DNA from: Phoronis australis
Taxonomy: Eukaryota > Animalia > Phoronida
Length of the DNA stretch: 64,000 nucleotides
Assembly (NCBI GenBank): GCA_002633005.1
Contig: NMRA01000028.1
Location: 728,260-792,259 of the forward strand
Direction: 5' to 3'
The notes under the pieces were generated by a model. The model saw only the letters and a program-made list of their open reading frames with translations, did not search any database and was not told the origin of the DNA. Both the position numbers and the translations under genes were made by a program. Below are positions 13,418 through 46,100 of the stretch, one piece after another. Position 1 is the stretch's first letter; each line of letters opens with the position of its first letter.

Positions 13418-13527
13418 CACAGGCGTCCTCAGCTTCTGATCGTCCCCAATACACTACATATAATACTACAAGCTTGTAGTATTATATGTAGTGTATTGGG
13501 GACGATCAGAAGCTGAGGACGCCTGTG
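13418..13527. mobile_element. Perfect 110-bp palindromic MITE-like insertion with 8-bp TSD
   Basis: 55-bp arms CACAGGCGTCC...ACAAG / CTTGT...GGACGCCTGTG with no loop; TTGCCAAT at both 13410-13417 and 13528-13535. Confidence 0.85.
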
Positions 13528-14783: not shown

Positions 14784-17700
14784 ATGAGAATTCAGAGGTC
14801 ACTTCGTAACAGACCCGCTAATGTGTCTGATACAGGTGAAGGCCAACAGATGTCGCAAGAGTCTAGTGAAGTCCTGGAACCCTCATCAGATATCCCTGTG
14901 TAAGTAGACTGAATTTCTCATGTTTGGTACGTACACTGTTTATTTGTGAAGAGCTTTCACCCAAGTTCCCCTCATAATTGGTGGTTGTCAACCCTGTGGG
15001 ATGGATTCAACTGAAAACAAAAATGCTATTGGGGAAATAAAATCTTATTTTCCTGATTATAAGAACTGAAGAGCATTGGGAAACATTTCAACAGCCTTGT
15101 GCTGAGGTCTTTTACCTGCCACAATAGCAATGTGCCTTTGTTCCATAAATAAAATTGAAGTTTGCTAATTCAGAGGTATACGGCCATGTAACATGTAGGT
15201 GCACAATATGTACATGTGATGGACCTATTGTTATCATGTTTAATAACAAAGGAGCAACTATGTATCATTGATCGCGTATGTGGTTGGATTTGCATTCTAA
15301 CATTTTTAGTTAGTGATTTTGACTTGACTGCATTATCTTTATGTGAGAATGTGAGATTTTAAGTGAAATTGCAATTTTAACTGTACAGGCCTGAGAATGA
15401 TGACAGTGACTTTGAAGAACCATCGACTCGGGCAAAAGGGCGAGGAAAGAGGGGAGCCAAGAAAAGTGAAGAAAATCCTGTAAGTCGATGTGTTTTTTGA
15501 TAAGGCTTACGAACATTTAGTATATAATATCGGAAATTAGAGGCATGTTTTGAAAAGTGTAAATCGTGTTGCATTTTTAAGTAGTGTGGGGGAAGTTTGG
15601 GTAATTCTGACAAACCACCTAGCTCAACTTGCTTACCTGCTACTGAAGGTTTATGTGTCAGCTTATAACATTTGACGAGTAGTGGGATATTCCCAAATCT
15701 TTTGAGAAACCAATCAATGAGATTCCTCATTACTAGTTCAGGTTCAATATCTTCAAATTTTAAGAATAACAACAATGGTCAAAATCGTGGAAATTCGGAT
15801 GCAGATGGGGAAAGTCAGACGGAGTGTCGGGGAAATTCGGACCAGCAAATTCTGAATACATAAAAGTCAGACGAAATATATAACAGTACTTTATGATTTC
15901 AAAAATGAATTTAGGTATTATTTAGCAGTGTAATCATGAGACGAATAATAAAATTTAAGAAGTTATGTCCTGGCGACATAAACAACGTAAAAGTATGTCC
16001 GCCATTACCAATTTGTGTGACCTCTTAACGCAGAAGGTCATGACGGGAGTACAAAAAGCTCCCATGAAAACGTCAAGAAAAGCGTCTAGTAGCCTAAAAG
16101 CAGCATACAAAAAGTTGGAGGGGAAATTCGGACACCTGTTTTTTAATTAAATAATGCTTTTCTGTATGTTTTTCTATTGGAATTAACACATAAAACTGCA
16201 TAGTGATGAATTAAGCATCAAATAAATTCGAGTTCGTTTACAAGAAAAGTGACCTAAATAAAACTTGGAAAAGAGAGGGTACCAACGGCAGACTTTCAAA
16301 ATCACCACGCGAAGGAGACGGCAGAGCAACGTAAGGTGCTGAACGTGCATCATATGCATTGAAACTTTGTTGTAATTCAAGTGAGGTAATAAATAAATTC
16401 CTACTATTGTTCAAGGAAGTGAATAATCTTTTCATTTAGTGGTAAGGCAGATTGATTGTTGATATATTTGACATTTATTTAGACTTGTCTGAATTTTGCC
16501 ACCGTCCGAGTTTCCCCGAACTACCCCTATATTGATTGCATAGTACAAAATATCCAATATCATTTTTTAGAACATGGAACTGCAGAGCATTTACCTGGGT
16601 AAAATTTACAAGGTGGCTGCCTTTTGCAGTGAACAAATTAAATTTTATTTTGTTGTGGGACTGTATTTCCAATTTCATGGTGTATCTATCAGCAGGCTCC
16701 TAAGAGAGCCCGGAAGGCCCTAGAGAAAGTGCCAGTCAACAGAGGGCGTGCTCGTCAAATGGAACATGAAGATCAAGAGAACAGTCTATTTGAAATAGTA
16801 AAGACTGGAAAATCAGCTCTGCAGGTAAAGAGGTTACAAATGTTGTTTCACCTGCAAATCGGTGCTTAAGGTTGGCAGGGGTTAGAAAAGTTGTCACAGT
16901 TTTTGCTATGCTAGGGTAATAGCAGAATGCTGAAATCCCATCAGTTATTTGAGCACTGAAATTCTTATACCGTATTTGCCCGAATAAGCACCCATGCCCC
17001 TATAAGCACCCCCCATGTATTTTCAGACTTAGCTACAATAAATGCCCAGCCCATGAGCATGTACATGCGAAAAATGCTTTACCTACAGTTCAAAAATTCT
17101 ACAGTAATGTCTTAAATTTATCAATAAGATCCGAAAGTCCTGAAAAAGTCCTTGTGCGTGGAACTTGTAGACTGCTAGCCTCGCCGCTATGTCGGTATGT
17201 AGCCGTGACTATACACTTCAAACTTCCGCCATGCTTCAAAAAGAGCGCAAAAGTTTTGCCGATCTTGCGAGGAACGCGTTCCACTGTGGTCTGGCCTTTG
17301 AGAACAAACGCGGCGTACTTGTCAACGGGATTGTATTGTATCTTTCCTGTACAGATCTTCTTCCTTAACAGGAATCCAAATTTCTTAGTACACATGAAAA
17401 CTGCGAATCGAAGACTAATAAAAAAAAACTTGACCGGCGTTAAAAGCCATGTAAAAAAGGCGTAATGACGCTCATGGGATGTGTGATGTAACATTTGGCT
17501 GTAAACAGTAATTGCATAGATATCGGGTCCTCAGTAGCTCAGTGGTAAGAGCACTAGATCAGCAAAATCTAGAGACCTGTGGTTCGATTCCCAGTTGGGG
17601 TTCCTGATTTTTCTGTGTTTATTTGATACATTTCACTTCTGGCAAACCTCTGTGTCTATGTATTTACTATATGAAATTTCTTTTATTAACTTAACGACAG

Positions 17701-20700
17701 GTAAATGCTTTTTGGTGGTCTTACCTTGTCTGCTTGGGTACTAGTAATGTTAGTCAGGATTTACGTGAAACAGTGACATTGTAGCTGTCTCTTTTAAGGT
17801 TACAGTCTCATGAGTAAGTGTAAGTGAATAATATTGCAGTGGATAAACACTGAATATAGTCTGTTTTTATTATCATTATAGACTTGATAGAATAATTGTA
17901 ATAATCTCATGATATGGGATGTTATTATTAGCATAATAGTCGTGATAATATAATTTATCGATATTATTCTCATAACATGTCCTGTTATTGTCAGCATTGT
18001 AGGCATGATAATATAATTTATCGATATTATTCTCATAACATGTCCTGTTATTATCAGCATTGTAGGCATGATAATATAATTTATGGATGTTATTGCTGTA
18101 ACTTGTCCACAGACTGTGGTGGATGAATGGATCGAGACCTACAAACAGGACCGTGACACAGCTCTGCTCAACCTCATACAGTTCTTTATACAATGCTCTG
18201 GCTGTAGGGGGCGCATCACGCCACAGATGTACGAGAGTCTGGAGCACGCAGAACTGATTAGAAAAATGACTGAGGAATTTGACGAGGTTTGTCCCTGACC
18301 AGACAAGAGACTCTCGTGTTAGAGTATTGGAAATTGTGTATTATGAGAATTACTGTGATGTATTTCCCTTTTTAGAATAGAAAAAAAGTTTAACATGAAA
18401 TGCACCCATTTCATCTGACATGATTATAGTCTGTAAGTTTGAAATACCTAGTTATATTTGCAAAACCGTTATGAGAATCCGTTGGCTTGTATGTCTTGGT
18501 TCGTCTCGCATAAAGAGGAGAGGATGTAAAAAAATGCCAACCTTTTTATTTAGTGTGGATGTAATCTGGGTCGTTACATGAGTAGCATCATGGGTTTTAT
18601 GACTTGTCTCCCCTGCAGGAGAGTGGTGACTACCCACTGATTATCACGGGGCCGACGTGGAAGAAGTTTCGCTCCAACTTATGTGACTTTGTGCTGGTTC
18701 TCATACGTCAGTGTCAATACAGCATAATCTATGACCAGTACATGATGGACAACCTCATCTCTCTACTAACAGGGCTTACTGACTCTCAGGTCCGTGCCTT
18801 CAGACACACTAGTACACTCGCATGTAAGTATTTCAGTTTTGTTTTTTGGTGCTGTAATCCCAGTTTCTGTCTAAAAACTTTTAATTTTTAGTTTAGGCCT
18901 TTTACTGTTAAAACTGGTCTTCATTTACTCCTTCCGACTGGAAGTAATTTCTGGGCTCAGAAATATGTTACAATTCATAATTGCTTAAGACCAGGTTCAT
19001 GAAGTTGTATGTATCAGTTGTTTGTATATTGTACCATCGGTGACTAAATTCCTTGATGTGGCAGTCTACATGGGGTACATTTTTAAACTTTTGGATGAAG
19101 ATAAGTTGTGCTGGAACTTAGTTTCTTTTAATTGATGACTTATTGATTCCCTCAAAAATTGGATTGCCCTCTGCTGGCGTTCATAGACATCAACTGCAAT
19201 ACCCTGGACTATGAGTCAGTCTACTCAGATCTGCCTCCTGTGGCTATTTAAGGAGGGATTCTTGGTTTTCACCCTAACAACTTTTCTGACACCCTACTCA
19301 CTCTCTGTATGCCATCAGTCACTAGCGGAAGGATCGAGGCAGCTCCACAATGTTGGCAAAACTATATTACAGTAAGCTCCAGAAGTTGGGATTTACAGTT
19401 TTCAAATCCAATATCCTGGCTGCTTACATACTGTTTTCTCCACAATTGAACATTCCTAACATTTCAGTGACAACCATATTGCTAGACAGTGTGTATTGGC
19501 AAGTTGTTTAGCTTACCTGAGCCACTCACAAGATATTCCACTACACTTGTGGTATCTTGTGTGATCTTGCTAAACTTGCAAGACACCTTTTTTAAACGAC
19601 CCTGTGCAATAGCAAATGTCGCCCTAAAAATGAATATTAACTACCCTAGCCATGAAGTTGATGACTGCATTGGTGGATGTGGCCCTGAACCTGAGTATTA
19701 ACTTAGACAACACTCAACGCCAGTATGAAGCTGAGAGACAGAAGTCCCAGTCTAAGAAAGCGAGTGAACGTCTGGAGATGTTGATGACAAAGAGACAAGA
19801 GGTTAGTATGGTTGAGGCCACACAATCCTAAGGTTTTTTCAGTGCTTCTTAGTTTCTTGTATTCTGAACATTTCCATTGACATACTAAAATGGCATTGAG
19901 GAGGTGATGTAGTATCATTTTTTACATGTGTTGCATAATGGTCTATTTACACCAACCTCTCGTCTATTACAATGTCATGCTAGAGGTTGGTGTAAACAGA
20001 CATGTAGGGTTTGTAAGATGATGTTGCATATTTCCAAAGCTTAAAAATGTTGCATATTTAACAATTTGTTATCTTATAGAATTTAAGTGTGTTTTATAAA
20101 CTGCAGGATTGATCGTGATATGTTCAAGAACAGCGCAGCTGTTTGAACAATCCATTTTGATCATTTGTCTGGTTCATTTACATATTTTGGTAGCAGCATG
20201 TATTTCCAAATGTGGAACTTGAAATTCACCTTCCCTCAGAAATGTCTGCATACAGGTTATCACATGTGTCCCTTATCACACAAACACCCCATGCTGGTGA
20301 TCTGTGTTCTTATTGCGATCTATTCAGGCGTCAAAAATGGGACACCTTTATTCATCAGCGCCACCTGAAGAATATTGAGTCACCCATTCTAATAATTTTA
20401 GTGTGTGTGTGTTTAAATGTTGATATTCTTAGTCTATCTCTACAAATACCAGTATTATTAAGTAATGAATCACAACATTAACTAAGATTTCATTGCATAC
20501 CGTTAACTTATGGTTTGTATTTTTCAGCTGGAAGAGAACCAGGAGGAGATCCGTAACATGTTGACCTACATATTCAAAGGTGTGTTTGTGCATCGTTATC
20601 GCGACAGTCAGCCAGACATTCGCTCTATCTGTATGCAGGAGATAGGCGTGTGGATGAAAAAATATCCCAACATGTTTTTGGATGACAGTTATCTCAAGTA

Positions 20701-23700
20701 TGTTGGATGGACTATGTATGATAAGGTGAGTTGTGTTAGGTATTAGTAAAGCAATAGTTAAACGCAATTCTCATTCTCATCATGGTAAGGTTTGCCAAAA
20801 ATATGTATTGATGTAAACACTGCCAGGCTGGTTTTTAAGATTGCTCAATTGTGAGTGTGAAGTTAAAAGTAGCCCTATGGCTCCTATTACAAACTACATA
20901 TATGTACTTGAAAACAACTCCAAATACAATCCAAGCAACATTCAGATATTTCATGTTCGCTGTGAATCAGCTAAAATGTGATGCCTTTTGCTTTTGAAAA
21001 AAAAAATCCATATATTTTTGATAATATTTAAACATTTAGATATAATACATTTTTGATAATATTCAAATTTTTAGACATTATACATACACAAAGGTAGTGA
21101 GAATGGCGTAGATGAAGTAATATCTTACAAGAAATTATCCCGTGTAATAATGTCGAGAGGGATATTACTTCATCTACACCAATTGAGGTATGTTTTGTAT
21201 TTATCCCATACGCTTCGAATTTTTAAGTTTCTTTTAAATATTTCACCCAGACTGTTTTCATGGCGGATCACATCCTATATGTATATACTTGCACGATAGG
21301 TTACAAGTTTTCTCTTTTAAAGAAACAGTTTTTAATGTAACGATTTCTTACTTGAAAAGAAATAACAAAGATGAAAACAATGGTAACTGTGTATTGAACT
21401 TGTAACATTTCTGATAATATTTAAACTTTTAGACATAATATAATACATTTTTGAGAATATTCAAACTTTTAGGCATTATACATTAATTATTCAGTTTGCT
21501 ATATGTGACGAAAAAATGGAATGTCTAAATTCTCAACAAATTTTTTTTGAGAAAAGGTTACTTCATTGTTGGCACAACTTAGTTGTTACCCAACAATATA
21601 AGGTATAATAATTGATGATAAAGGAATAATTATAAAGTTCTTTGAAAGTAGCATTCAAGCACTAAACACAATAACTTATTGTTTCAAAGTCGTGCCTTGT
21701 ACATGTTATTTGAGGATTTTTTGTGTTTACAAATTGATCGAACATTCATTCAGGAGTGCATGCTTTATGTTGATGATAAGCATAGTAAACTTTAAGAAGT
21801 ACAAGAATTGTGTGTTAATAGAATAACTACCGTAGCTATAGTGGCAAAGTGTCAGAAATAGTTTATTTAGAAGTAGTATGCCATCTGTGGTCTTAATAAT
21901 TAAACTGGGCACAAATTATACTCCAATTTTAAAACGAACAAAGCTTGTGTTTTCAACATGGTGGCTAACATTTTACGTATTTCATCGTCACATTTCCTGG
22001 GTTATTTTATGTGAATGATAATTGTTTTTTCTGTGGGTCACTGTGGATGTTTAAGGAGGTTTCATCGCTGTGTAAATGTAATGTGACATTTGTTTGTTTA
22101 AGTGTTGTACTTCTGTCTTACACTTCCCATTCAGTGTGGTGATGTGCGTCTACAGTATGTTAAAGTGTCATACTTCTGTCTTACACTTCCCATTCAGTGT
22201 GATGATGTGCGTCTACAGTATGTTAAAGTGTCATACTTCTGTCTTACACTTCCCATTCAGTGTGGTGATGTGCGTCTACAGTATGTTAAAGTGTCATACT
22301 TCTGTCTTACACTTCCCATTCAGTGTGGTGATGTGCGTCTACAGTATGTTAAAGTGTCATACTTCTGTCTTACACTTCCCATTCAGTGTGGTGATGTGCG
22401 TCTACAGTATGTTAAAGTGTCATACTTCTGTCTTACACTTCCCATTCAGTGTGGTGATGTGCGTCTACAGTATGTTAAAGTGTCATACTTCTGTCTTACA
22501 CTTCCCATTCAGTGTGGTGATGTGCGTCTACAGTATGTTAAAGTGTCATACTTCTGTCTTACACTTCCCATTCAGTGTGGTGATGTGCGTCTACAGTATG
22601 TTAAAGTGTCATACTTCTGTCTTACACTTCCCATTCAGTGTGGTGATGTGCGTCTACAGTATGTTAAAGTGTCATACTTCTGTCTTACACTTCCCATTCA
22701 GTGTGGTGATGTGCGTCTACAGTATGTTAAAGTGTCATACTTCTGTCTTACACTTCNNNNNNNNNNNNNNNNNNNNNNNNNNNNNNNNNNNNNNNNNNNN
22801 NNNNNNNNNNNNNNNNNNNNNNNNNNNNNNNNNNNNNNNNNNNNNNNNNNNNNNNNNNNNNNNNNNNNNNNNNNNNNNNNNNNNNNNNNNNNNNNNNNNN
22901 NNNNNNNNNNNNNNNNNNNNNNNNNNNNNNNNNNNNNNNNNNNNNNNNNNNNNNNNNNNNNNNNNNNNNNNNNNNNNNNNNNNNNNNNNNNNNNNNNNNN
23001 NNNNNNNNNNNNNNNNNNNNNNNNNNNNNNNNNNNNNNNNNNNNNNNNNNNNNNNNNNNNNNNNNNNNNNNNNNCTGATGCCGTTATTTATAGAAAGAGA
23101 GGTATGTAGTGCTAACACACCTCTCATACATGATCTGATGCCGTTATTTATAGAAAGAGAGGTATGTAGTGCTAACACACCTCTCATACATGATCTGATG
23201 CCGTTATTTATAGAAAGAGAGGTATGTAGTGCCAACACACCTCTCATACATGATCTGATGCCGTTATTTATAGAAAGAGAGGTATGTAGTGCTAACACAC
23301 CTCTCATACATGATCTGATGCAGTTATTTATAGAAAGAGAGGTATGTAGTGCTAACACACCTCTCATACATGATCTGATGTCGTTATTTATAGAAAGAGA
23401 GGTATGTACTACTAACGCACTTTTCATACAGGACCTGGTGCAGTTTTACAGAGAGTGGGGTATGAAATTGACTTGTGCCATGTTAAAAGTTGTCATAACT
23501 ATGAAGTTTTAATTAGTTATATTGAGTGCTGCATCAGCAGCTCAAAAATGACCAACTTCAAAGTAAGGTAAACGTAATAAGACTGAATTAGTTGATTAAG
23601 CCAAAAGTAACACTGATTTGCTCCATTCAAACAACAGTATAATCATAGAAAACAAGAAGTGTTAACTTGCCTTATTTCACAACTTGGAGTTTCATTGCAA

Positions 23701-26700
23701 AATCAAATCAAAACATACGGCTCTATCCGTTGTGGGAAACAATGTGTCACAAGATAATACCTAACAGCTGTCAGTAGAACTTTAATGGAACGATGTACAG
23801 TCTGTATATACTTTATTCTGTACAAAGTTTCTTCTAAACTCTCTTAACCTTCACCCTGTGGCAGTGTTTTAAGCACGTCATGAATGACACGCGGCGTACT
23901 TGTGTCTTCATAAACATCGATGATGTCTTATTGTTGCTCCGTGACCCCCAAAACATGCTGTGACTTCTTTTACAATACTAACTCTGTTCTGTTCTGGTGG
24001 TAGCTTCATGAACACGGCGCCTATCTAGTGGACAGTCTGTGGGAGATTAATGAGATGATGAAAGACTGGGAATGCATGACTGACTTGTTGCTAGAGGAAC
24101 CTGGCAGAGGAGAGGAGAGTAAGTATATGGGCGGGTCATCTGTTGCTAAGCAACTGTTCACATCACTTGTGAGACCAACTGTTGCCATTGTTTTTATTAC
24201 TGTTGTGGTATTCATTGTTTGTATTTTAGCAACGCCCCTTTTCTGATCTTACTGGCCATTACAGAGCTCGACATGAGGGAGTGCATGCTCGAAAATGGGA
24301 GAAAAGAATTAAAATTAACCTCACTCCTATTATTTGAATGGGCGCGAGTGGACGTTGGGCCCTTTTTTGTCACCACTTTTGACGAGTTCAGTTCTGGAAG
24401 TATGAGTGTAGAATATGGCGTCATTTGTATTTTCAAGCAGGTATTTTCACCTTTGAGAGTTGGCTCAGGCACCGAAGTACTGTTGTCTGTATTAAAATGA
24501 CCATGATATAAAACATATTTGCAGTGTCTTTGACCACTGTGTGTAACATAGCTTTATTATGTGATATCTGTGAAGTTTGACTTGTACAATTATGATAGTG
24601 TTTGTGCTGACATTAATCATTCCAGTCTTAGACGACCGTCAAGAGGCTAGCCTTATTGAGATCATGGTGTGTTGTGTGAAGCAGGCTGCTACTGGAGAGT
24701 CACCTGTTGGACGCGGGCCAAACAGAAAGGTACGATTTCAGACACAAGAGCTCTGTTTCAGTAGTAGCTGCTATCTCACTACTTGTGTAACCTGCTTTTC
24801 CTATTGAGCAGATTTTGTTTTAGCTGTTTCATGGATTTTATGCATGCTTCTATTAATCTGCAGGGGTCTGTATAGAAATTGTTTCTTGGAAATTGGGTTT
24901 GATTCTACTATGAAAAAGTCAGAAAAGTGGCATTTAAAGATTTTTGGTGCGCACTGGTTGACTGTACTATTGTTATTGATATCAATCTAATTAACTGCTA
25001 GATTATTAGTCAACAAACGCCTTTTTGTTGTTTACAGCTGACAATGAAGGAGAACAAACAAGTTGGTGAAGACAAGACCAAATTAACTGAACACTTCATC
25101 ATGGCGTTACCACAGCTGCTGGCCAAGGTAGGGTTTTTTACTCCTGTTCAAGGGGTCCTATCAACAAAGAATTTCACTGATGGATCTTACACTGGTGCTG
25201 TGTAAATTAATGTCGTTACTGTTAATATTTTGATGTCATATTGTTTTCTAGTATGGCCGTGAATTTTGAGACTGTTGCTCTCCTGTTACTCTTGCTTACC
25301 AATACCACAATATTATGTCATCGTTATCTAGTGTTTGGCAGTGTTGTCAATACCACAATATAATGTTATCAGTATCTTAGATGTTAGTATCCCAGTGTTG
25401 GTAGTCTTTTCAATACCATAATATAACCCAATTAGATTCTCACTGTTGGTAGTGTTGTCAAAACTACTGTATAATGTTATCAGTATCTTAGGTGTTTTTA
25501 GAGTTGTCAATACCACAATATAATGTAATCAGTATCCCAGTGTTGATGGTGTTGTCAATACCACAATACAACGTTATGGGTATCTTAAGTGTTGTTAGTG
25601 TTGTCAATACCACAATATAACGTTATCAATAACCCAGTGCTGGTAATGTTGTCAATACCACAATATAACGTTATCAGTATTTCAGGTGTTGTTGGTGTTG
25701 TCAATACCGCAATTTAACGTCATCTGTATCCTACTGTTAGTAGTGTAGTCAGTGCTGCAAGTACTACGTTATCAGTGACTCGTTCGCCGGTTGTGTTATC
25801 ATTTCTGTTGGTTGTTGTTTCAGTACAATGCTGATTCTGAGAAGGTAGCTAACCTGCTACAGATACCACAGTATTTTGATCTGGAGATTTACACAACCAG
25901 TCGACAAGAGAAGGTATGTGAACAGCCGTCCTCTAAGGCTGGTAGCTTTAGTTGTCATTTGTGTAAATGTTTGCAATAGATGGCATACTTTATAGTGCCT
26001 TTCTTGAGAAAATGAGGTGTCATTTACTTGCAACTTGGTTGGTTGCAACTATGAATGCAGTTTTTATGTGGCAAATGTTGAAACAAATTTGAAAATGTTT
26101 TAACTCTTACACAAAGGAGTTAAAGCCATACTTACTTGAATGGGTGTTTTCTGTTTAGTATAAAATGTGCGCAGTTGATAATGTTGTACAACTGTTACCA
26201 CTAATCTACATTTGTTTACAGCACCTGGATTCATTGCTGCGTCATCTACATGAAGTTGTAGAGAAACACACGGACAACCAGGTGAGAAGGGTGTGATGGA
26301 TAGGGGGAGGGGTGGCGGTGGTGATGGGGGAAGGGTCATGGTCATGGGGTGGTGATGGTGCGGGGAAGTGATATACTCTGTGGGTAATCTGAAGTAACAC
26401 TAAAATTTGTTGTGTTCTGCTGGGAAGTGTTAGGATTTCGATTACTGAAGACAATTTGTTCAACTTTATTAAACCTACAATAAACTCAGTAGATGGTTAT
26501 AGTTGCTGGTGAAGATGTGTGATTTTTGAAATAGTATGTGCTACCACCATAAATCTTTCGTCTATTCTCCAATCTTCTTGATTTGACAATCTTCGAGATC
26601 AACGGTAGCCAAATTGATTTCTTCAGCACCATATTCCAGAATTTGCTCTTTCGTACCATATTCGATGAAGGTGTGGTCACACAATTGTAGCACTTATATT

Positions 26701-29700
26701 AATAGTAATAACAATATGTCTGGGACAGTGTGGGCGAATCTTCAGGGAGTTTGATTTTAATTTGAAATGGCCACTTATACCCTTCATTCTTCCCACAGCT
26801 GTTGGAGGCGTGCTCACTGTGTTATGAATGCCTGTGCAATGAAGAGTACGCCATCGCTGGCAAGTGTCAGGTGGCCCGCTCATCTCTTATTGATGGACTG
26901 AAGCAGAAATATGATCAATCATACACGGACTACTTTGAAGATGTGAGTACACTGTTGCTGTTTCTATGGTTGCTCTTACACTTCGCACTTGACATTTATA
27001 TGGATAGCTTGTTCAGTTATCAGCACCTAAAGCTCTGGAGAATCACCTCATTGGGTCTAAAATGCCAGTAGGTGCTTGTGTCATTTCACTGAAATTTATG
27101 TCACTTGCAATACAGTTTACTCAGTACTAGTGTACTAGTGTATATGCAGGGAAAATAGTCAGAGAGTAAACCATAAGACCAACGTGTAGGTGCTGCTTCT
27201 TTATTTGAAGTGAGGATTACCAATAGATTTACTCTAGAATATGCGTTTTTACATTTTGAGATAATTACACATTTGGTTGATAACTTCAGTTTTGTACATT
27301 TTGTGTAATTAAAATCATGTTTCACGGTAACTCTCTAAACTTCATGCAGTAACATTGAAAACTTCTCAACATTTCACAGCTGAACTATACTTTACAAAAG
27401 GCTATAGTCTTAATGTTTATGCTATACTAAAACAAAATGTTTATGCTGTACTGGAACAAATTGCTACCAAAACAAACTGTGATGGGGATAATGAAAAACC
27501 AATTTTTTGGCAAAATAGCTTATTCAGTGCTTACTATGCCTACCAATTATTAATAATGAACTCTGTTATCATTCATGTACTCCATTTTTCAAAACAATGA
27601 ATCTCATTTTCCTTGCTTTTAGACTCTGGATTTGATGATGAGAAAAACGTGATTTCTGTTGTTCAGTACTAGTTTCCATAATAAAATGAAGTGAAGTAAA
27701 CTTGCTTGATTTGTTTGTTGACAGGAGGAGGCTGATGAGGATGAGGCGTATGCTTTGTTGGCCAGTCTCAAGAGATTGTATGCGTTCTATGGGTAAGTTG
27801 GCCAGTCTCAAGAGATTGTATGCATTCTATGGGTAAGTTGGCCAGTCTCAAGAGATTGTTTACGTTCTATAGGTAAGTTGGCCAGTCTCAAGAGATTGAC
27901 ATGCATTCTATGGGTAAGTTGGCCAGTCTCAGGAGATTGTATGCGTTCTATGGGTAAGTTGGCCAGTCTCAAGAGATTGTATGCATTCTATGGGTAAGTT
28001 GGCCAGTCTCAAGAGATTGTTTACGTTCTATAGGTAAGTTGGCCAGTCTCAAGAGATTGACATGCATTCTATGGGTAAGTTGGCCAGTCTCAGGAGATTG
28101 TATGCGTTCTATGGGTAAGTTGGCCAGTCTCAAGAGATTGNNNNNNNNNNNNNNNNNNNNNNNNNNNNNNNNNNNNNNNNNNNNNNNNNNNNNNNNNNNN
28201 NNNNNNNNNNNNNNNNNNNNNNNNNNNNNNNNNNNNNNNNNNNNNNNNNNNNNNNNNNNNNNNNNNNNNNNNNNNNNNNNNNNNNNNNNNNNNNNNNNNN
28301 NNNNNNNNNNNNNNNNNNNNNNNNNNNNNNNNNNNNNNNNNNNNNNNNNNNNNNNNNNNNNNNNNNNNNNNNNNNNNNNNNNTTCAGGGAGTTTGATTTT
28401 AATTTGAAATGGCCACTTATACCCTTCATTCTTCCCACAGCTGTTGGAGGCGTGCTCACTGTGTTATGAATGCCTGTGCAATGAAGAGTACGCCATCGCT
28501 GGCAAGTGTCAGGTGGCCCGCTCATCTCTTATTGATGGACTGAAGCAGAAATATGATCAATCATATACGGACTACTTTGAAGATGTGAGTACACTGTTGC
28601 TGTTTCTATGGTCGCTCTTACACTTCGCACTCGACATTTATATGGATAGCTTGTTCAGTTATCAGCACCTGAAGCTCTGGAGAATCACCACATTGGGTCT
28701 AAAATGCCAGTAGGTGCTTGTGTCATTTCACTGAAATTTATGGCACTTACAATACAGTTTACTCAGTACTAGTGTACTAGTGTATATGCAGGGAAAATAG
28801 TCAGAGAGTAAACCATAAGACCAACGTGTACATGCTCCTTCTTTATTTGAAATGAGAATTAGCAATAAATTTACTCTGGAATATGCGTTTTTACGTTTCG
28901 AGATAATTACACATTTGGTTGATGACTTCAGTTTTGTACATTTTGTGTAATTAAAACCATGTTTCACGGTAACTCTCTAAACTTCATACAGTAACATTGA
29001 AAACTTCTCAACATTTCACAGCTGAATTATATTTTACAAGAGGCTATAGTCTTAATGTTTATGCTATACTAAAACAAAATTTTTATGCTATACTGGAACA
29101 AACTGTGATGGGGATAACGAAAAACCATTTTTTTTGGCAAAATAGCTTATTCAGTGCTTACTATGCCTACCAATTATTAGTAATGAACTCTACTGTTATC
29201 ATTCATGTACTCCATTTTTCAAAACAATGAATCTCATTTTCCTTGCTTTTAGACTGGATTTGATGATGAGAAAAACGTGATTTCTGTTGTTCAGTACTAG
29301 TTTCCATAATAAAGTGAAGTGTAGTAAACTTGCTTGATTTGTTTGTTTGTTGACAGGAGGAGGCTGATGAGGATGAGGCGTATGCTTTGTTGGCCAGTCT
29401 CAAGAGATTGTATGCATTCTATGGGTAAGTTGGCCAGTCTCAAGAGATTGTATGCATTCTATGGGTAAGTTGGCCAGTCTCAAGAGATTGTATGCGTTCT
29501 ATGGGTAAGTTGGCCAGTCTCAAGAGATTGCATGCGTTCTATGGGTAAGTTGGCCAGTCTCAAGAGACTGTATGCATTCTATGGGTAAGTTGGCCAGTCT
29601 CAAGAAGAGATTGTATGCATTCTATGGGTAAGTTGGCCAGTCTCAAGAAGAGATTGTATGCATTCTATGGGTAAGTTAGCCATTAATCCCAGCTTGAAAC

Positions 29701-32700
29701 ATATAGTTTTGGACACACTGTTAACATCGACAAGTTAGAATGTTGAATTAATGCCGTGTTGCCGCACGAGTAGTTCAGTATGAAGTCACCCTATGCTACA
29801 TGGCAAATGCACTGGTTGATGTCCACAGGTTGATGTCCACAGGTTGATGTCCACTGGTTGATGTCCACAGGTTGATGTCCACTGGTTGATGTCCACAGGT
29901 TGATGTTTATAGTTAAACTTCGACAGGTGGACGTCTACAGGTAGATGTCTTCATGTAGATCTTGTGCCAGAAGACAAAGCTAAACTAATAGTCGTAGCTG
30001 GGTTCGCTCGTTTCTTTGTTATCTGTCTAGCATCATTAAGATGAGCAACTAGGTCTGTAGCACTCCCACCCTATAATGAGTCGTCCCCCATTGTTACCCA
30101 CAGCTGCCATGACCTGTCTAGTTGGGACCTCTGGGACCATCTGTTCAGTATCCTGAAGATGGGTAACGAGAACTCCAGTATCCCCCACCAGATTGTGTGC
30201 CGCGCGCTCGGGTGCTGTGCACTGGCCATCATATGGTACTTGAAGCAGCAGGATGAACACAACCCTGATAAGGTGAACACAGTGCTTCTAGTAATCATTA
30301 GTTGAAGTACTGTTATTACTACTATAGTTAATTGTATTATGACTCAGCCTGCATTTAAAAGATCTCTAAGTAGTAGGTTAGAGAAACACAAATTGAAGTA
30401 AATGTGTGACATTGCGACAGCTGGAATGTACAGTAAGTTCACAAATTTTTAATTCAGCTTAATAGCAATTTTTCGTTGCTTCTGCAGTTAACTTTTGGTT
30501 GTTGTTGACAATGTTTCAGAATGAGATGAAGAAACTGAAGAAGAGGCAGACTGATCTGATGAAGATGTGTTATGACCTCATGTATCACCAACATGACAGG
30601 GTCAATGAGGAGGTAGGTAGTCACAGCATGTGTTATGACCTCATGTATCACCAACATGACAGGGTCAATGAGGAGGTAGGTAGTCACAGCATGTGTTATG
30701 ACCTCATGTATCACCAACATGACAGGGTCAATGAGGAGGTAGGTAGTCACAGCATGTGTTATGACCTCATGTATCACCAACATGACAGGGTCAATGAGGA
30801 GGTAGGTAGTCACAGCATGACAGGAGCCAAGGTTTGTGACGTGTGTTGTTAACATTGTTTATTGCCTATCCTTATACCTGTCTCTAAATTTCATCTCATG
30901 TTATACATCAACAGCCTGTAACTATTGTCAAATTCATGTGAGTGTACAATGAAATGATCAGTGTAATCACCTCACCTTATATACATCAACAGCCTGTAAC
31001 TAACGTAACATTCATGTGAATGTACAATGAAATGATCAGAGCCGTTATGTTGTTCCAGGCATTCATCACAATATGTGACTTGTTAATTGTGTTCAGCAAG
31101 CAGCTTGGTGAAACTAACGCTGTACTGAAGCCTCTGGTGTATGAGCCAGATAAGGCAGTGCAGAATCAACTTGGTACCTTCCTTAATGAGAAGGTGTTTG
31201 TTGAAGACGATGATGGTAAGTAGACAGTTATCTTGTGCTTGTATGTTCTCTATAGTGGGAGACTTTTGGTAAGTGAGTGGTCACATGAGATGGCTGACCT
31301 CTACTGCAATTCATCAACAAATGTTAGTACTAATATGTCACAATGAGTGGCACAGAGATATTTTGCTTTCCATAAATATATGTTGTTTTTTTTGATAAAT
31401 TGAGCCATTTCCAGACATTTTGCTTAAAAGGAAGTTATATGTCGGCGTTGGGACAGTTAAGAGTCATCCGACATTGCGTCCTCAGTTAGTGGTCAGTTGA
31501 CTTACGAAGCCATTCCCTCTTCAGATAGGAAGCTCTTAGATACAGTCCGTGTTATTTTCAAACACTTTTCAGAGGGGAATGTGCCTCGGTATTTGGCCCC
31601 AAAATCGAGGGCTCTGCGCTGCCATTTGTTTAACAAATTCTGCATACTGGAGGGGCTTCTGCCAAACTACTTACAATTTATGGCTGCAGTGTTTGTTTAC
31701 AACTACACCCACAACAGTGACCCCTATTGTGATTAGTTGATGTTGATGTTGTTTTTATTCAGATGAAGTGGACGAAAATGTGAAGATCGAAGAGCTCCAC
31801 AATCGTCGTAACTTCCTGGCGTCATTTTCCAAGTTAATCGTCTACAACATAATCCCTATACGCAATGCAGCGGACATGTTCAAACACTATATGAAGGTGA
31901 TCTGTCCGTCTATTTTGAATTACATACATGATGTGAAAAACAAATAACATTCAATAATTAATGGTAACGTGTCTTGTCACAGTGAACTGTGGAATCGAAA
32001 TACCAAAGTTTTGTGATGCAGATCACATTTATTGTCTCACCTGTATTCCACACAATGTGTAAGAGCACCTTTCCTTTTCATTAAATCAAGTTTGCACCTG
32101 ATGTTTGTACAAAACATTTTGTCTTGATGTGTTGTGTTGCATTTTGTATTTAAGCTCTACCCTTCTGAAACAACACAGCACACCCTAGTGGGCGTATATT
32201 TAGGACTCTAGGAAGACCAACAACATATCATTTTCTGAATATACATCTTAGCGCTTACTTTCAGAGTATCATATAATGTGTTTACAGTTGGTTTCAGAAA
32301 TTAGGAATTTCAAAAAAACAGCAAAATCTTAATTGGTCACGGAGGGGTGAAATTGAATAGACTTTTAGTTCACTTGTGTCCATCACTAAGTGTAATCCTT
32401 TATTACTGTCTTCATTTTTGTTTTCAGTTCTACAATGACTATGGTGACATTATCAAAAACACCTTGAGCAAGTCGCGTGAGATTAGTAAAGTTTGTACGT
32501 CCAAGACTCTGGCTACTAGTCTGACACAGGTGGGTGGAACAGGGGTTGTATTTTAGTCTTAGAAAATTTTCGCAGATACCAGTAAATATGGAACAAGACT
32601 GTATTCATAAAAAGATAAAATTATTTTAAGGGATTTATAAGGTTGATGATAATAATAATACAATTTCTGCAAATAGCATCCTATGCTTCTAGATCTCCTG

Positions 32701-35569
32701 GAATGTGTGTCGACATTTTGCTTTTGACACCAAAACATCAATTTGGTTGAAGTACATGTATTTGTGAATCGTCTTGACATCATCACAGGCAGATTGAATA
32801 TTTCCAGTTTAAAGGAACCATATCCAGGTTCCCCTAATTTGCAACAATTCCTAGAAACGCTGTACAAGTAATTTCATTCATCAGCCATTCAACAAACCTA
32901 CGCCCACGTTTACTGACAATTTTATGATTGTAAACAACCTCTTTCGGTCGTTACAAAAATTCCGGTGCAGAAAACTTCTCATCATTTTGTGTAACCGACG
33001 AATTCGTGGTTTTAAGCCATGAGCTTTTTAGCATTTTGATAGACTGCTCATTGATGCTTTTGAGGAAAGTATTTAGTTTTATTGTTAATATATTTTCTGG
33101 ACTGAAAACCTGCACACTGTAGGTACGTTTGCGCGTATGTGTTACACCTGTTCACTTGCCTTACAGTTGTTCCAAGAGCTTCCTAAGGCTCACGCTGGCA
33201 CAGTGGACAGGAGTACAGAATCTTTCCAAGCCATCAAGGAACTGGCCAGAAGATTCGCGTTGTCATTTGGTTTGGATCAGATTAAGAATAGGGAGGCAGT
33301 TGCTGCTATGCACAAGTTAGTGTCCTTGTTCATTGTCTTAAAGGCACACTGTTGGATTCACGGCCTAAACGCATTTTTGGGATTATTGTATAGACTCCTT
33401 CAGGTTATTAGCTTTGACTAGAGCTATGAAACAACAAAATCTGCTGACTGTAAATTTGTGATTTTATTATTTTATATTGTATTGGTTTTTCTAAAATATG
33501 TCAGTGATTTAGATTAAGGTAAAAGTGTTTCATTAGGAGAATCGTGATACTCAAGCTTATTATAATTAAAATTCTCAGTTTGAATAAGTCATTCATGACA
33601 GATGCAAGGTAATGTTCTTAAAAGTTCACAAAATGCATCATTGCATTGTTGTCTATGCTCTTTTTGTGGAGTGCACCTCTCACAATTTCTCATCTTTAGA
33701 GAGGGCATTCAGTTCAGCTTGACCCCAATGGAGAACCCTGATGACCCGACTGGAGCGCCACCTAACTTGGCCTTCCTGGAGATTTTGTGTGAATTCACCA
33801 ACAAACTTATGAAACAAGATAAAAAGACAGTGTGAGTGTTTATGCAGTTTCCTAGTCTTTCATCAGCATGAATGAAATTCTTATGGAAAATGCATTTTTC
33901 AAAGTCACATTAGCGTTATTTAGACCGTAATATGTTTACACTTAGTGTATCTGACGCAATCAAGACTTCAGTTGATCCATGGCATTTACTCTCGGAAAAA
34001 GCTTATAATGCATTCCAGACTAAAAGAAATGTCATTGAACGTGGCTATAATTACAAAATATTTCTGGCCTTCTATACACTATTGGCGATAAACATTTTTT
34101 AAATGTCGTTTCCATCTTTAGGAAGGTAATTTAATTTGTTGCAGTGATTTTAATTTTTTCTCCCGAAAGAATTAGCATGCAACATTTCCAATGGTTATGT
34201 TTTTGTGCATTACAGTGTGAACTATCTGGACAAACTTTTGTCTGCTGGCATGCCACCAGGGCGCTCTGACGACTGGACGCCTCTCTTGACATACAGGAAC
34301 AGTCTTGTAGCTGGAGAAGAAACCGAGCGTTCTGTGGTCTCCGTTAATCCACCTGGTCGTCCACGCGGGGGCCGGCGCCCCAAGAGACGATTTGAGGGTG
34401 AGGAGGACAGTCTTTCCAAGCAGCCTCGCACCCCTGGTACGCGCCCTCCACCAATGATGGCTTCTACAGCATTAAGAGGTCACGGGGGTCGGGAGTTAGA
34501 AGATGATGAACATTCCGTACAGTCGTCGCTGGCCCAGGAGTCAGAGCATGGATCTGAAAGGGACTTTGAGGACCAGTGAGTAGGCGCACTATCATGATGT
34601 GGAGTTGGGCGACCTCTGATATAGAGGCTGGCAACATAATGAATTCTCTTATAATACACATAATCATCTTGGTTGTGTTACCAGTGAAACCAAATTTGTT
34701 GATTGTGTATACCAGTGCAAGGTGTATACCTGTGCATGTGTATACCTGTGCAAGGTGTACAATCTGTATGTGTTGAGAGCAAACAATGCGCAACATATTC
34801 ACTACATTAGTGTGAGTGTATCCAATGAATGAATGATATTATGCTGTGGGATGCACTGGGATGAATTGTCATTTGATAATTATGCCTGTGTTGCATATAG
34901 TTATAAGTGTACATCAGAATTGACGTGAAAAGAATAAGCGTTTCCAGTCTTTGTTTGAAAGCATAATTTGTGTACTACTGTGTAATCCTTGACTAATAGT
35001 CTCATTTTTATATTCTACATCAGTTTTATACACAATTCAGTGTCTTAGTACTTTGATATTCACGGCCTGTTTCTTTGGGAGCCACCACATTTGCATGTAA
35101 AGAAGTTTTTAAATACTACAGTCATTAATTAATAAGGCAGTGACTACAGTGGTCAGGTTTTTATACCTGTAGATCTATGATGTCGTCAGTGGGTGGAGTG
35201 AGCCAGGCGTCGTGGTTGAACAGTCAAAAGAGGGCACGAGATCTCCAGCGACAACAGGAAATGAGTTACACGCGCTCCATGAGGACACCTAATAGGTAAT
35301 CTCCTTTCAAAATGTGTTATTTGAAACATTGTTGATTGGTAATACATTTAGTTTACGTCACATTGTGGTATTTGATGAAGTAGTCTATGTGAAGTTTGCC
35401 ATGTGTTTGGTTCAACTGAGATGAACTAGTTATAGTTGCCACATAATTTGCATCTCTGATTTCATTTTGTTTTGCCTTATCTGAATGATTTATTATTGTT
35501 TCCAGGCCAGCAATGGGAGAACACCATGAGGACAGCTTGTCAGAGTTTGAGTCACCCCAGCCTTATTAG
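14784..35569 (+). CDS. STAG1: Cohesin subunit SA / stromalin (STAG1/2-like); some exons hidden in assembly gap
   Basis: Exons: 14784-14899, 15389-15479, 16696-16824 ([14 protein letters not shown]), 18113-18286, 18619-18823 ([14 protein letters not shown]), 19650-19801, 20528-20725 ([26 protein letters not shown]), [gap], 24004-24118 ([13 protein letters not shown]), 24626-24729, 25038-25127, 25824-25913, 26222-26281, 26799-26942, 27725-27792, 30104-30272, 30520-30612, 31059-31215, 31763-31896 ([13 protein letters not shown]), 32428-32529 ([10 protein letters not shown]), 33167-33315, 33700-33831, 34216-34575, 35173-35295, 35506-35569 (TAG). Phases are consistent. The N- and C-terminal low-complexity exons are less certain. 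Probably co-orthologous to vertebrate STAG1/STAG2, so the symbol is approximate. Confidence 0.95.
16968..17500 (-). mobile_element. DNA-transposon remnant with decayed HIRAN-like ORF
   Basis: TA-CCGTATTTGCCCGAATAAGCACCC end with internal TAAGCACCC repeats. ORF 17099-17494 has NPVDKYA..V....TVERVPRKI...FL.HGGSL.C.VT, resembling transposon-borne HIRAN proteins (from recall). Confidence 0.5.
17525..17612 (+). mobile_element. tRNA-derived SINE head or tRNA pseudogene
   Basis: A box TAGCTCAGTGG, B box GGTTCGATTCC, stem CTAGAT/ATCTAG and a T-run; imperfect acceptor stem and irregular anticodon loop. Confidence 0.65.
17885..18112. repeat. 63-bp intronic tandem repeat ending in a STAG acceptor
   Basis: GATAATATAATTTAT recurs at 17944, 18007 and 18070; the last copy runs into CCACAG|ACT at 18112. 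Confidence 0.85.
22096..22756 (+). repeat. 63-bp minisatellite of STAG 3' splice site plus exon start (10 or more copies)
   Basis: Unit = pyrimidine tract ..CTTCCCATTCAG | TGTGGTGATGTGCGTCTACAGTATGTTAAAG ([10 protein letters not shown], cf. STAG QGEVRLKCLK). AGs end at 22134, 22197 ... 22701. The array runs into the gap. Confidence 0.92.
22757..23074. other. Assembly gap (318 N) hiding STAG exons
   Basis: N run. About 130 aa of conserved STAG sequence between ..MYDK and LHEH.. is missing. Confidence 0.9.
23075..23466 (+). repeat. 60-bp minisatellite of STAG exon end plus 5' splice site (6 copies plus 1 diverged)
   Basis: Unit [17 protein letters not shown]|GTATGTAGT (cf. SA consensus NTPLIRDLVQFFIESE preceding LHEH). 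Donor GT at 23102, 23162 ... 23402. Confidence 0.92.
25300..25780. repeat. Degenerate ~50-bp intronic minisatellite
   Basis: About 9 copies of GTGTTGTCAATACCACAATATAA(C/T)GTTATCAGTATC upstream of the acceptor at 25823. Confidence 0.85.
27758..28140 (+). repeat. 40-bp minisatellite of STAG exon end plus donor (copy 1; 9 or more units, 161-bp higher-order repeat)
   Basis: TTGGCCAGTCTCAAGAGATTGTATGCGTTCTATGG|GTAAG repeated; the variant pattern of units 2-5 recurs in units 6-9. Confidence 0.93.
29390..29680 (+). repeat. 40-bp minisatellite of STAG exon end plus donor (copy 2; 7 units)
   Basis: Same unit with different variants; the last two units carry a 3-bp insertion. Confidence 0.93.
29810..29950. 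repeat. 14-bp tandem repeat
   Basis: GGTTGATGTCCAC(A/T) about 7 times, plus degenerate copies. Confidence 0.9.
30565..30819 (+). repeat. 63-bp perfect minisatellite of STAG exon end plus donor (4 copies)
   Basis: [16 protein letters not shown]|GTAGGTAGTCACAGC x4; donor GT at 30613, 30676, 30739 and 30802. Confidence 0.95.
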
Positions 35570-35791
35570 TTCCTATCACCCCCAACAGGTGGTCTGTTGA
35601 TCTTAGTGACAGCTGGGTATTTGTTATAAGAGGAAATGAAAAGGTCTAACAATCGTTATCATAGTTTTAACTTCAAAAGCTATGATGTCTGCAGATTTGA
35701 ATGATGTATGGAAAATAGATTTTCATCCAATAAAAAGTTGAGCCTAAATTATTCCCTGTTTGGAATCTGTGTTGCTTTTAGTAAGGTTTTA

Positions 35792-43100: not shown

Positions 43101-46100
43101 GCTGGCTGAGCAGATGCACACTATTGAGAATAGATTGGTTTAGGTTGGCTGCTGGTTATAGTCATTCAGTTATTGCTGGTATGCAAAGGTGAACAAATCC
43201 CAAAACTGGTTATTTGACCAAGTCACTATGTGGGTAAATCAAGGATGATGAAGCCATCGTCAAAACAGAAGATGTGGCAAATACATTGTAGCAACACATT
43301 GCTTGCTTACACTGGACTTGCTTATTTAGTAAATGTATCTACATTCCTGTAGCTTCCAGGCATAATTAAATGTCCTTTGTCAGTGGCACAGCAGGAGTAG
43401 AGAACTTACTCTACACAACAAATGTTGGCTTGCAAAACACATACAAGACACAAAAGGCAGGAAAGAATGCCTGGCTGTACTACTGACTAAACAATGCCTG
43501 GCGGTACTACTGACCAAACAATGCCTGGCCCTACAACTGACCAAACAATGCCTGGCCGTACTACTGACCAAAGAATGCCTGGCCGTACTACTGACCAAAG
43601 AATGCCTGGCCGTACTACTGACCAAAGAATGCCTGGCCGTACTACTGACCAAAGAATGCCTGGCCGTACTACTGACCAAAGAATGCCTGGCCGAAATACT
43701 GACCAAGGCTATTAAGATTGTAGTTAGTAGATCTCCGACTCATCTCTCTCAAGGTGTGGAAATGGCAAGAGGCACAGTTCACTGTAATGGCTACTATAGT
43801 CTATCAAACTACTGAACTGCACAATATTTTGTCAAAGGTGTCAACTAATGCTAAAGGTATGGTCAAGACAATTAGTCGTAAATTGTCCATTTGGAAAAAG
43901 TGGGAAAGTTAACAGCAAATAGTGTAAGAGCAATGTTACATATGGACAAAAACAAAGAAAGTTGGAATTATCGGAGTGATTTCATTTTGTCCTGTAGTAA
44001 CTATTCTACGTATCAGATGAAATAGTACTGGAAATAATTAAATGTTTAGAGATGAAACCAGACCTGTGAGATAGAAAATGAGACACGGGTTATAGCAACA
44101 CAGTATATAACTGCACCACCAGCCATATTGCAAACATGGACTATAGCAACACAACTGCTCCATCATCCAATTTGGCAAATACGGACTATAGCAGTTCAGT
44201 ATATAACTGCACCACCAACCATATTGCAAAGATAGACTATAGCAATACAATATATAATTGCAGTACCATTCATGTTGCAAACATGGACTACAGTAACACA
44301 GCATATAACTGTATTACCATTCATAATGCAAACAAAACAAACAAGGATGAAGCGGTGCTATACAAACCAAAATTAGACCAACAAAGTTTCTCTATCATGC
44401 CAGTTAACAGTCAGTCACTCTAGCAACTCTGATGGTGAGTTCCGCTCATGATCAGTTGTCATGACGGAGAATTCTGGGTCATTTCGCTAGATCCTATTTT
44501 GGCATGCACTGTAGATAAGAAAGAAGTCAGCCCACACAAGGGTCAAAATGGCATGGACGCTACATACCCCTGGAATGGTCCTTTGTCACGTGACAAATGA
44601 TGCCAAACACAAAAACATGGTCAGAGTACAATTTCAAATCAAACCATGGAAAATGTAGCGCAAGTTGACTGACTACTCACAACAATTCACCAGCACTGAC
44701 TTGAGGTTGTCCAAATAGACCTTGACCTTCAACCTTACATGTACTGTATTACATACAGTATACTACATGACTCTAAGAGGTTTCCTAAAGCCACAAAACA
44801 ACCAATCTCGGCAACATTGAAGTCAGTGAATTGGAAGGCAAATTTGTTACAAAACAAGGTCAGAAGTGACTTTCAAACCATCAGAGAGCTGACGATAGGT
44901 TATGCAATAAACTGAATGAGGTCACAACACTTAGGCGCCAAAAGGAATTCTTGTTCACTTCAAAGGAAAGAGTTCCATTCCCTGTCCAAAGGTTAGATTC
45001 AGATAGTGCTACAAGAGCTTTGTTACCTTGTGGCTTTAAGTCAAACACCTACATAAACAAATGACAACTTACGGTGCTGACATTTTCCTAGGTGGAATGA
45101 CTGGAGACTTCTTCTTAAAACTCCTCGACCGTGGAGTTTGTACAATATTACAGCTGTAAGTGTCTGCCAAGTCACCTGTAGTAGAAAAGATTAAATTTAA
45201 TTAATTTTAGGGTTCAGTAAATACCTGCCTAATCCAAGTGCACACTTGCTGACAACAAACGCTGAGAGACAAACTGCAGTTCAATCTCGAATGTTCGGCT
45301 TTAATTGACCTATCGGCAGGACTTTGAGGGACGGCTTAACTGACCAATCAGAACGCAGAACTCTTGACACACCTTCGTTTCCAAGCCGCCATTTTACCTG
45401 ACAAACAACACGTTGTCAGGTAAAACTTATTGTTTCTTTGTTGACTTTTCGCAAGGGGAAGGAGCTTGCGATGGGTCAATTTCGGGGTCATTTAGTGCCA
45501 ACTCATCTGTGTAACTCATGATGTAGTAGCACGCAAAATGAAAGACACTGTCTTATCTTTAGTTTACATTAAAAATAAAATTGAAAATATTAAAATTTTC
45601 ACTTTTTAACATTATAATAAAAAAGTTAAAGTTCAAAGATTAATTTCAGACTTTGAACTTAGGACAACTGCAAAAGCGTTAATTTAGAAACATAAACTAA
45701 TAGACAATGTATGTTAACGAAAACCTGCATGGGCTTTGAACTGAACAAAGTAATGTTATGACTGCATGTGGTCTCATTCACCCCAGTTTAAGTGATGTTT
45801 GATTGTGAGTGGCCTCAGTCATCCCATCTTAAGTGATGTTATGACCATGAGTGGTCTAATTCATCCTAACTTACCTATGTCTGTCTGTTCTGGCAGCCTG
45901 AGTCCACTGTAAGGCGGGACCCTGGTCATCACACTAACAGATCGACCAGTGATCACTGGTCGACTAGGTCCAGAAGGTAGCTCGGTGTAGGCACTGGAAG
46001 AGTTGTTCATTTGACTGTACACTCCATTCCTAGCTGATGGAGGTACTGAGTAAGTACTGCGTACATCATGTGACAATCTGCCTGCAGATGGTGGAGGCAC

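Follow-up and report, generated by a model that had tools for sequence, protein, structure and literature searches.

When a gene carries many near-identical copies of its own splice sites, the question arises how the spliceosome picks one of them and whether the spare copies have any role. This question is raised by a 64,000-nucleotide stretch of DNA from Phoronis australis (contig NMRA01000028.1 of assembly GCA_002633005.1, positions 728,260 to 792,259 of the forward strand; hereafter the window, with positions counted from its first letter), in which the gene for a STAG/SA cohesin subunit (14784..35568, plus strand) contains four unrelated tandem arrays, each with a unit made of a piece of coding exon plus its splice site. 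A previous sequence-only reading had described these arrays and proposed either a mutational process that prefers junctions or a tuned or selected ladder of competing splice sites. In our analysis, the STAG arrays are probably neutral "mirage" minisatellites of the gene's own exon-intron junctions, with the site beside the intact exon doing nearly all of the splicing, and the spare splice sites are likely to be harmless by-products. The repeat class is already known, as "mirages" in amphioxus and as donor-bearing variable number tandem repeats (VNTRs) in human F7, CBS, IFI6 and ABCA7, and the present locus is a new, dense instance of it.

Anatomy of the splice-junction arrays

The STAG gene has 24 visible coding exons, in addition to one or more exons hidden in an assembly gap, and its protein matches the Pfam STAG and SCD families. 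Its reading frame, established by tblastn and exon joining, is free of stops on either side of the gap, and its median intron length is 531 bp. Arrays were called with Tandem Repeats Finder (TRF) and splice sites were then counted in each unit. TRF detects 29 arrays in the window, corresponding to 7.3% of its length, and finds all four of the STAG junction arrays (a 63-bp acceptor array and 60-, 40- and 63-bp donor arrays) where the sequence-only reading had placed them.

The 63-bp acceptor array (22095..22756, plus strand) consists of at least 10.5 copies with 99% matches and holds 10 AG acceptors. The first exon-like base is at 22135 and recurs every 63 nt. The unit opens with a GDVRL-like exon piece matching the conserved G-D/E-V-R-L that follows the preceding exon, where G, D, V, R and L are supported by 76, 39, 75, 76 and 63 of 78 homologues, respectively. 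The exon part was assigned by homology only, and the genuine acceptor presumably lies in the adjoining gap. The first unit of the array is the most diverged.

The 60-bp donor array (23075..23461, plus strand; TRF 23075-23445, 6.2 copies, 95% matches) shows six visible donors, with last exon-like bases from 23101 to 23401, followed by a decayed terminal copy of 58 nt. Each unit contains about 54 exon-derived nt and 6 nt of intron (GTATGT), and its translation agrees with the homologue profile S-P-N-T-P-L-I-R-D-L-V-Q-F-F-I-E-S-E from the third residue onwards. The common unit has decayed at the protein level as compared to the genuine exon end recovered from RNA: five amino acids are changed (8 of 32 nt differ, by eye), and the decoy residues H, M, P, L and R occur in 0, 0, 0, 1 and 0 of 82 homologues. 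The terminal copy retains the V, Q and S codons and the interior units have common derived codons, as expected if end units escape homogenisation. The array is present in real DNA, since a step back of 60 nt inside it is seen in two of three RNA runs from a second study and in a DNA contig.

The 40-bp donor array occurs twice in the assembly. Copy 1 (27757..28140, plus strand) has at least 9.6 units, being cut by a gap, with nine donors and the genuine donor after 27792. Copy 2 (29389..29682, plus strand) is complete, with 7.2 units and seven donors, and its last two units are 43 bp long. Each unit comprises 36 nt of exon and 4 nt of intron. Copy 1 has a higher-order period of 161 bp, and two of its decoys (TAG|GTAAGT) fit the U1 consensus better than the genuine donor (TGG|GTAAGT). 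The 63-bp donor array (30565..30819, plus strand; TRF 4.0 copies, 100% matches) has four identical units of 48 nt of exon and 15 nt of intron with four donors, the genuine donor lying after 30612.

A fifth, decayed case claimed for the CDC20 gene was confirmed as a 118-bp pair (6245..6466, minus strand; TRF 1.9 copies, 82% matches) that spans the donor after 6442 and provides a decoy donor after 6324. The decoy aligns to the real junction better than 200 of 200 shuffles; the unit is out of frame, its length not being a multiple of 3, and runs into a stop. A scan for decayed copies within 500 nt of the 74 visible junctions regained the three known visible cases (0 of 200 shuffles each). Weak, short hits at CDC20 donor 10144 and at acceptor 45175 of a neighbouring PH-domain gene (2 of 200 shuffles) were taken as chance at this number of tests, and a 48-bp array before acceptor 25824 was unconvincing as a mirage (6 of 200 shuffles). 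A degenerate 48/97-bp intronic array at 25300-25751 varies in length, as a DNA contig of run X1 omits one 48-bp unit from 25598 to 25647.

The window comes from a short-read assembly, with N gaps at 22757-23074 and 28141-28382 and three single Ns, and here the array anatomy given by the sequence-only reading had to be corrected. Across the region of the first gap (22757..23074, 318 N), full-length homologues most often have 134 residues (32 of 82 proteins). Judged from this spacing, the gap must conceal about 134 STAG codons plus introns, including the genuine junctions of both flanking arrays, so that every visible copy in the 63-bp acceptor and 60-bp donor arrays would be a decoy. Both arrays are cut by the gap, and the copy numbers given above are those of the visible part.

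The second gap, of 242 N, lies inside a duplicate block (26741..29682, plus strand) in which 26741-28045 and 28383-29682, 1.3 kb in length, are 94% identical and differ by a single silent base per exon. A DNA contig (record 6) covering 26510-27685 agrees with copy 1 from 26741 and has seven differences upstream of it, and a second DNA contig carries the 4-nt insertion of copy 2. The two copies are most likely two haplotypes set in tandem. On this reading the 27758 and 29390 arrays are alleles of one 40-bp VNTR that differ in internal pattern and in length, with at least 9.6 units in one and 7.2 in the other. That exons 26799-26942 and 27725-27792 are truly duplicated in tandem was rejected: no RNA joint going back from 27792 to 26799 is among the listed joints of the three runs, the copies differ by only the one silent base per exon, and both the record 6 contig and like doublings beside single Ns count against it.

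These doublings flank the single Ns at 5296, 11305 and 36433, and the exons of CDC20 are doubled. Near-duplicates are present at 3966-4974 and 5297-6304 (95.5% identity) and at 10278-11304 and 11306-12318 (97.5%), with a shorter one near the N at 36433 (about 35790-35921 and 36434-36581, 85%). They are likely uncollapsed haplotypes of a heterozygous animal.

Splice-site use in RNA

Three raw RNA runs (X5, X6 and X7, from one study with the same species label) and a DNA contig run were aligned to 23376-27816. From each RNA run 18-19% was read, and a joint was listed when at least three reads of a run supported it. This coverage includes the 60-bp and 40-bp arrays; the 63-bp acceptor, 63-bp donor and CDC20 arrays lie outside it. 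The six STAG introns between 24118 and 27725 show GT..AG joints in all three runs.

At the 60-bp array, all of the 22 listed X5 reads that enter exon 24004 carry the genuine exon end, with an agreement of 1 in the loose ends upstream. The loose end encodes the conserved R-D-L-V-Q-F-F-I-E-S-E. The genuine exon end was defined as the consensus of these 22 reads, and the junction count is from X5 only. A joint from a decoy donor to 24004 is not listed in any of the three runs at the threshold of three reads. At the 40-bp array, 6 of 6 listed X7 reads leave from the first donor (27792) into exon 30104 (agreement 1), although two decoys of the same allele match the donor consensus better. The genuine exon end of the 60-bp array must sit upstream of all its visible units, and therefore the most upstream donor is the one used in the listed reads at both arrays covered by RNA.

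The origin of the arrays can be envisaged in a few steps. A local duplication of 40-120 bp would by chance span an exon edge. It would persist where the intact exon retains its own splice site and the surplus copies land in the intron, and wholly exonic duplications would be purged. Unequal crossover or slippage would then enlarge and homogenise the array and leave the end copies behind, and the exon-derived part of the copies, freed from protein constraint, would drift. The spliceosome would use the first donor after a defined exon, as in F7, and, by a symmetry that we assume, the last acceptor before an exon. Where a genome is rich in repeats and its introns measure about 500 bp, it is largely expected that a single gene will hold several arrays; these steps leave unexplained the modest excess seen at exon edges.

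Reading frame, clustering and alternative explanations

The sequence-only reading had pointed out that three of the four STAG units are stop-free multiples of 3 and that the fourth reads into a stop, and had cautioned that such a bias could be chance. Both the pattern and the caution hold. The units of 63, 60 and 63 bp are stop-free in the STAG frame and the 40-bp unit reads G and then TAA. Among arrays with a period of at least 30 bp, multiples of 3 make up 3 of 5 junction arrays and 5 of 8 non-junction arrays (Fisher p = 1), and therefore a frame bias specific to junctions was rejected; binomial probabilities are 0.11 for 3 of 4 and 0.21 for 3 of 5 with CDC20 included. A unit with 54 of its 60 or 48 of its 63 nt taken from coding exon is almost bound to be stop-free. 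For the 63-bp donor array, 14 of 21 other STAG donors are stop-free over the same distance of 15 nt of intron, and 11 of 22 acceptor flanks in STAG are stop-free over 13 codons. The TAA of the 40-bp unit results from its donor being in phase 2: a stop follows within two codons in five of six phase-2 STAG donors, and its reading as a designed switch for nonsense-mediated decay (NMD) was rejected for this reason. Outside coding sequence and junctions, too, many arrays have periods that are multiples of 3 (9 of 18 with a period above 10), probably by chance.

Several observations weigh against silent arrays placed by chance. Sense reads go back 60 nt within the 60-bp array (1+1 in X5, 2+3 in X6, 0 in X7) and reads over the ends of the stretch number 2, 3 and 0 in these runs. 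About five sense reads cross the array, whereas 17 bins of plain intron, 2,533 bp in total, yielded about one read. The crossing reads would correspond to 4% to 0.5% of transcripts for an array length of 370-3,000 bp, and for their excess to be significant the array has to be short and the background estimate correct. They could be unspliced RNA or could reflect downstream donor use, which the tables do not separate, and the 60-bp array may leak at a level of a few percent or less. The exon that follows is covered to a depth of about 25, 15 and 7 reads, and so low a depth leaves room for decoy use below about 10%; NMD would hide the use of the 40-bp decoys. The RNA is from other animals than the assembly, and its coverage ends short of both 63-bp arrays. 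The joint chance that three of four units are in frame and stop-free is about 0.04 (0.11 x 14/21 x 11/22, by hand arithmetic under a 1-in-3 null), or about 0.17 with the window's own rate of 5 in 8; the evidence in this pattern is not negligible, but it was noticed post hoc.

The last of these observations is the clustering of arrays at junctions. Arrays and haplotype doublings were collapsed, and the seed unit of each array was placed at random in the gene that contains it, not counting placements that fall entirely within an exon. The test took in the 13 arrays with a period of at least 30 bp, shorter-period and intergenic arrays being left out, under a null that does not model base composition. 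Junctions are spanned by 5 of the 13, against 1.7-1.8 expected (nominal p 0.018-0.022). In STAG alone the count is 4 of 8 against 1.3-1.4 expected (p about 0.03), and among arrays with at least 2.5 copies it is 4 of 10 (p 0.022-0.026). Two further arrays end less than 20 nt from a splice site and repeat none (0.39 expected, p 0.054): a 63-bp intronic array (17920..18094, plus strand) that stops 18 nt before STAG acceptor 18113, and a 42-bp intronic array (45748..45873, minus strand) that starts just past the donor GT of the PH-domain gene. All these p values are nominal, as they come from a single window selected for the feature, and the modest excess is a lead and not a result.

It is possible to explain this excess by a junction-directed mutational process that would seed duplications at splice sites well beyond chance, for example through breaks or slippage at exon edges favoured by the presence of transcription and splicing complexes or of nucleosomes. 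Such a process would then be the main cause of the clustering, in place of repeat density and short introns, and the arrays would still be silent. We regard this explanation as unlikely. In its favour are the spanning counts (5 of 13 against 1.73-1.81 expected, and those for STAG and for the longer arrays), and the two near misses are easier to account for by a positional bias than by selection for spare sites. On the other side, the window was chosen for the feature, the null is blind to base composition, and the exons of the third gene were drawn by eye. The proposal of the sequence-only reading that junction sequence is preferentially amplified is thus weakly supported and not established.

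There is a slim chance that mirages lying in frame do leak. A few percent of STAG transcripts would then be spliced from donors further downstream in the 60-bp array, and perhaps from sites in the 63-bp arrays, and the cohesin subunit would receive inserts of 20-21 residues in a number that tracks allele length. On the same view exon edges would be favoured places for arrays to form, with reading frame acting as a filter. From the analysis as a whole two leads are left, namely the modest excess of arrays at exon edges and the few reads that cross the 60-bp array.

The ladder of the sequence-only reading, in which copy number would set a series of competing sites, tolerated or selected, that add repeats of 20-21 residues (60- and 63-bp units) or trigger NMD (40-bp unit) and thereby tune cohesin, fares worse and appears very unlikely. 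The three in-frame, stop-free STAG units and the roughly five sense reads crossing the 60-bp array, beside nearly empty plain introns, are what such a ladder would produce, and partial use of downstream donors is documented, in the accessible text of the sources, for human IFI6 (6-16) and CBS (PMC1557585) and for ABCA7 (PMC5954066). However, the genuine site is used at both arrays with RNA (22 of 22 and 6 of 6 listed junction reads), and the exon parts of the decoys are altered at conserved residues. Junction arrays show no frame excess over non-junction arrays and a stop-free unit is nearly automatic, the TAA follows from a phase-2 donor, the CDC20 case is out of frame, and the reads in the 60-bp array may be unspliced RNA stacked on a long array. 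Finally, that the arrays are assembly artefacts at contig ends, a possibility the sequence-only reading had allowed, is scarcely credible: three of them abut N gaps, near-duplicates of about 1 kb lie beside the Ns at 5296 and 11305 with a shorter one at 36433, and the 27758/29390 doubling is probably such an artefact, but the unit differences are patterned (the 161-bp higher-order period, variants of 41 and 43 bp, decayed end copies), unique sequence borders the arrays at 29389, 30565 and 6245 on either side, and the 60-nt step back inside the 60-bp array recurs in RNA reads of the second study and in a DNA contig.

Neighbouring features and related repeats

Three genes are present in the window, namely CDC20 (minus strand), STAG (plus) and the PH-domain gene (minus). 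The ten joined exons of CDC20 form a complete frame, and the family assignment is supported by the Pfam CDC20 WD40 match and by human CDC20 as best structure hits. CDC20 (5' end at about 10936 or 11950) and STAG (13200-14784) are arranged head to head with 1-3 kb between their 5' ends, by eye. Both are chromosome-segregation genes and a common promoter is possible. The PH-domain gene (40145-63159, minus strand), whose exon model was drawn by eye, encodes an N-terminal PH domain (Pfam) and has a long Pro/Ser-rich exon with tyrosine motifs. We take it to resemble the GAB/DOS docking proteins. A quick tree of 49 STAG proteins (the window protein and 48 of 120 listed homologues picked for spread) places the window protein within a lophotrochozoan group (support 99), outside the mollusc (99) and main annelid (100) clades; its position inside the lophotrochozoan group is not settled by the tree.

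Other repeats were also observed in the window. A perfect 21-bp repeat in three copies (550-611) lies in the 3' untranslated region directly after the CDC20 stop codon. By eye, a near-perfect inverted repeat of about 106 bp, resembling a miniature inverted-repeat transposable element, is present at 13420-13525 in the region of the first STAG intron, and tRNA-like stretches with motifs resembling box A and box B at about 17526-17600 and 62097-62163 are probably heads of short interspersed elements. At about 23515-23690, in a STAG intron, a dispersed repeat gathers RNA reads in both orientations as well as numerous DNA contigs that stem from other loci. At 24705 all covering RNA reads (26 of 26, 10 of 10 and 9 of 9) have A where the assembly has T, a silent change that sets the animals sampled for RNA apart from it.

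The choice among near-identical donors, which the sequence-only reading had posed as a question without recognising that the repeat class was described, has been studied directly in human F7 (PMC1557585). In the accessible part of that paper, first-donor choice is shown for the 37-bp VNTR of F7 intron 7, and LMNB2 and PDGF intron 4 are named as like cases. As in the donor arrays here, the genuine F7 donor lies in the first unit and identical pseudo-donors follow, and the most upstream donor is the one used, here at the 60- and 40-bp arrays. Stronger pseudo-sites did not compete there, and here the genuine 40-bp donor is used over two decoys that beat its consensus match. In contrast, the exon part of the F7 unit is 4 nt as compared to 36-54 nt here, the portion of the paper available describes no acceptor-side case, and scanning, shown there in mammalian cells, is assumed here.

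Mirages of amphioxus have been described, in the accessible portions of two papers, for Adh3, the globins BflGb6 and BflGb9, troponin C and PGBD5 (PMC3087553, PMC3902484), of which the second contributes PGBD5 and troponin C. According to the first, mirages occur at donors as well as acceptors, differ in length between haplotypes, evolve in concert with their boundaries excluded and leave splicing undisturbed, and the Adh3 mirage is somatically unstable in length. The STAG arrays share much with them (PMC3087553, as far as its accessible text goes). Units span an exon-intron boundary on the donor or acceptor side, and unit lengths overlap (10-160 bp there, 40-118 bp here). Copy number differs between haplotypes, as it would for the 40-mer (at least 9.6 versus 7.2), given the allelism proposed above. 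The interior is homogenised with end copies excluded, which is seen here in the 60-bp terminal copy and the first 63-bp acceptor unit. AG or GT signals are retained in the copies (10 acceptors and 6, 9 + 7 and 4 donors here). A gene may have several mirages. Regular splicing, which is apparently kept in amphioxus, is seen here for the main product at two of four STAG arrays, at a depth that leaves room for rare decoy use. The amphioxus cases differ in that their host is a cephalochordate, whereas the STAG tree makes the present host a non-mollusc lophotrochozoan; in addition, a single cohesin gene carries four arrays here, and there is a hint of low-level array-bearing RNA.

Some donor VNTRs are leaky, according to the parts of the sources that could be consulted: those of human IFI6 (6-16) and CBS intron 13 (PMC1557585, in summary) and of ABCA7 intron 18, where retention of one unit shifts the frame (PMC5954066). 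In these the donor is likewise reiterated in the VNTR, and the nearest pseudo-donors are usable and add one or two units, whereas here a few reads lie inside the 60-bp array and no joint from a decoy to the exon is listed at the threshold of three reads. Internal tandem repeats in human segmental-duplication genes (PMC2812944, likewise in part) are also minisatellites at exon-intron boundaries and can alter splicing or seed introns; those belong to young paralogues with transcript-backed changes of structure, whereas the RNA here is unchanged at the covered junctions. The part of PMC10078293 available to us has nothing bearing on repeated splice sites. In a literature search that drew mostly on papers open without subscription, we found no genome-wide test of junction enrichment and no report of a mirage in this animal group.

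The STAG gene thus provides a dense and clean example that extends mirages to a non-mollusc lophotrochozoan, and its 60-bp array is a good illustration of protein-level decay in the exon-derived part of a mirage whose real exon stays conserved. It is also a warning that such arrays break short-read assemblies and conceal real exons, about 134 STAG codons being absent here. A genome-wide excess of duplications at exon edges, if confirmed, would be relevant to the gain of introns by tandem duplication. The locus would also carry greater weight if the acceptor array, which has at least 10 near-identical 3' sites, turned out to be leaky, as acceptors have received less study than donors of the F7 type. 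And if mirages do leak, STAG would be a natural test bed with four arrays for the choice among identical donors and acceptors.

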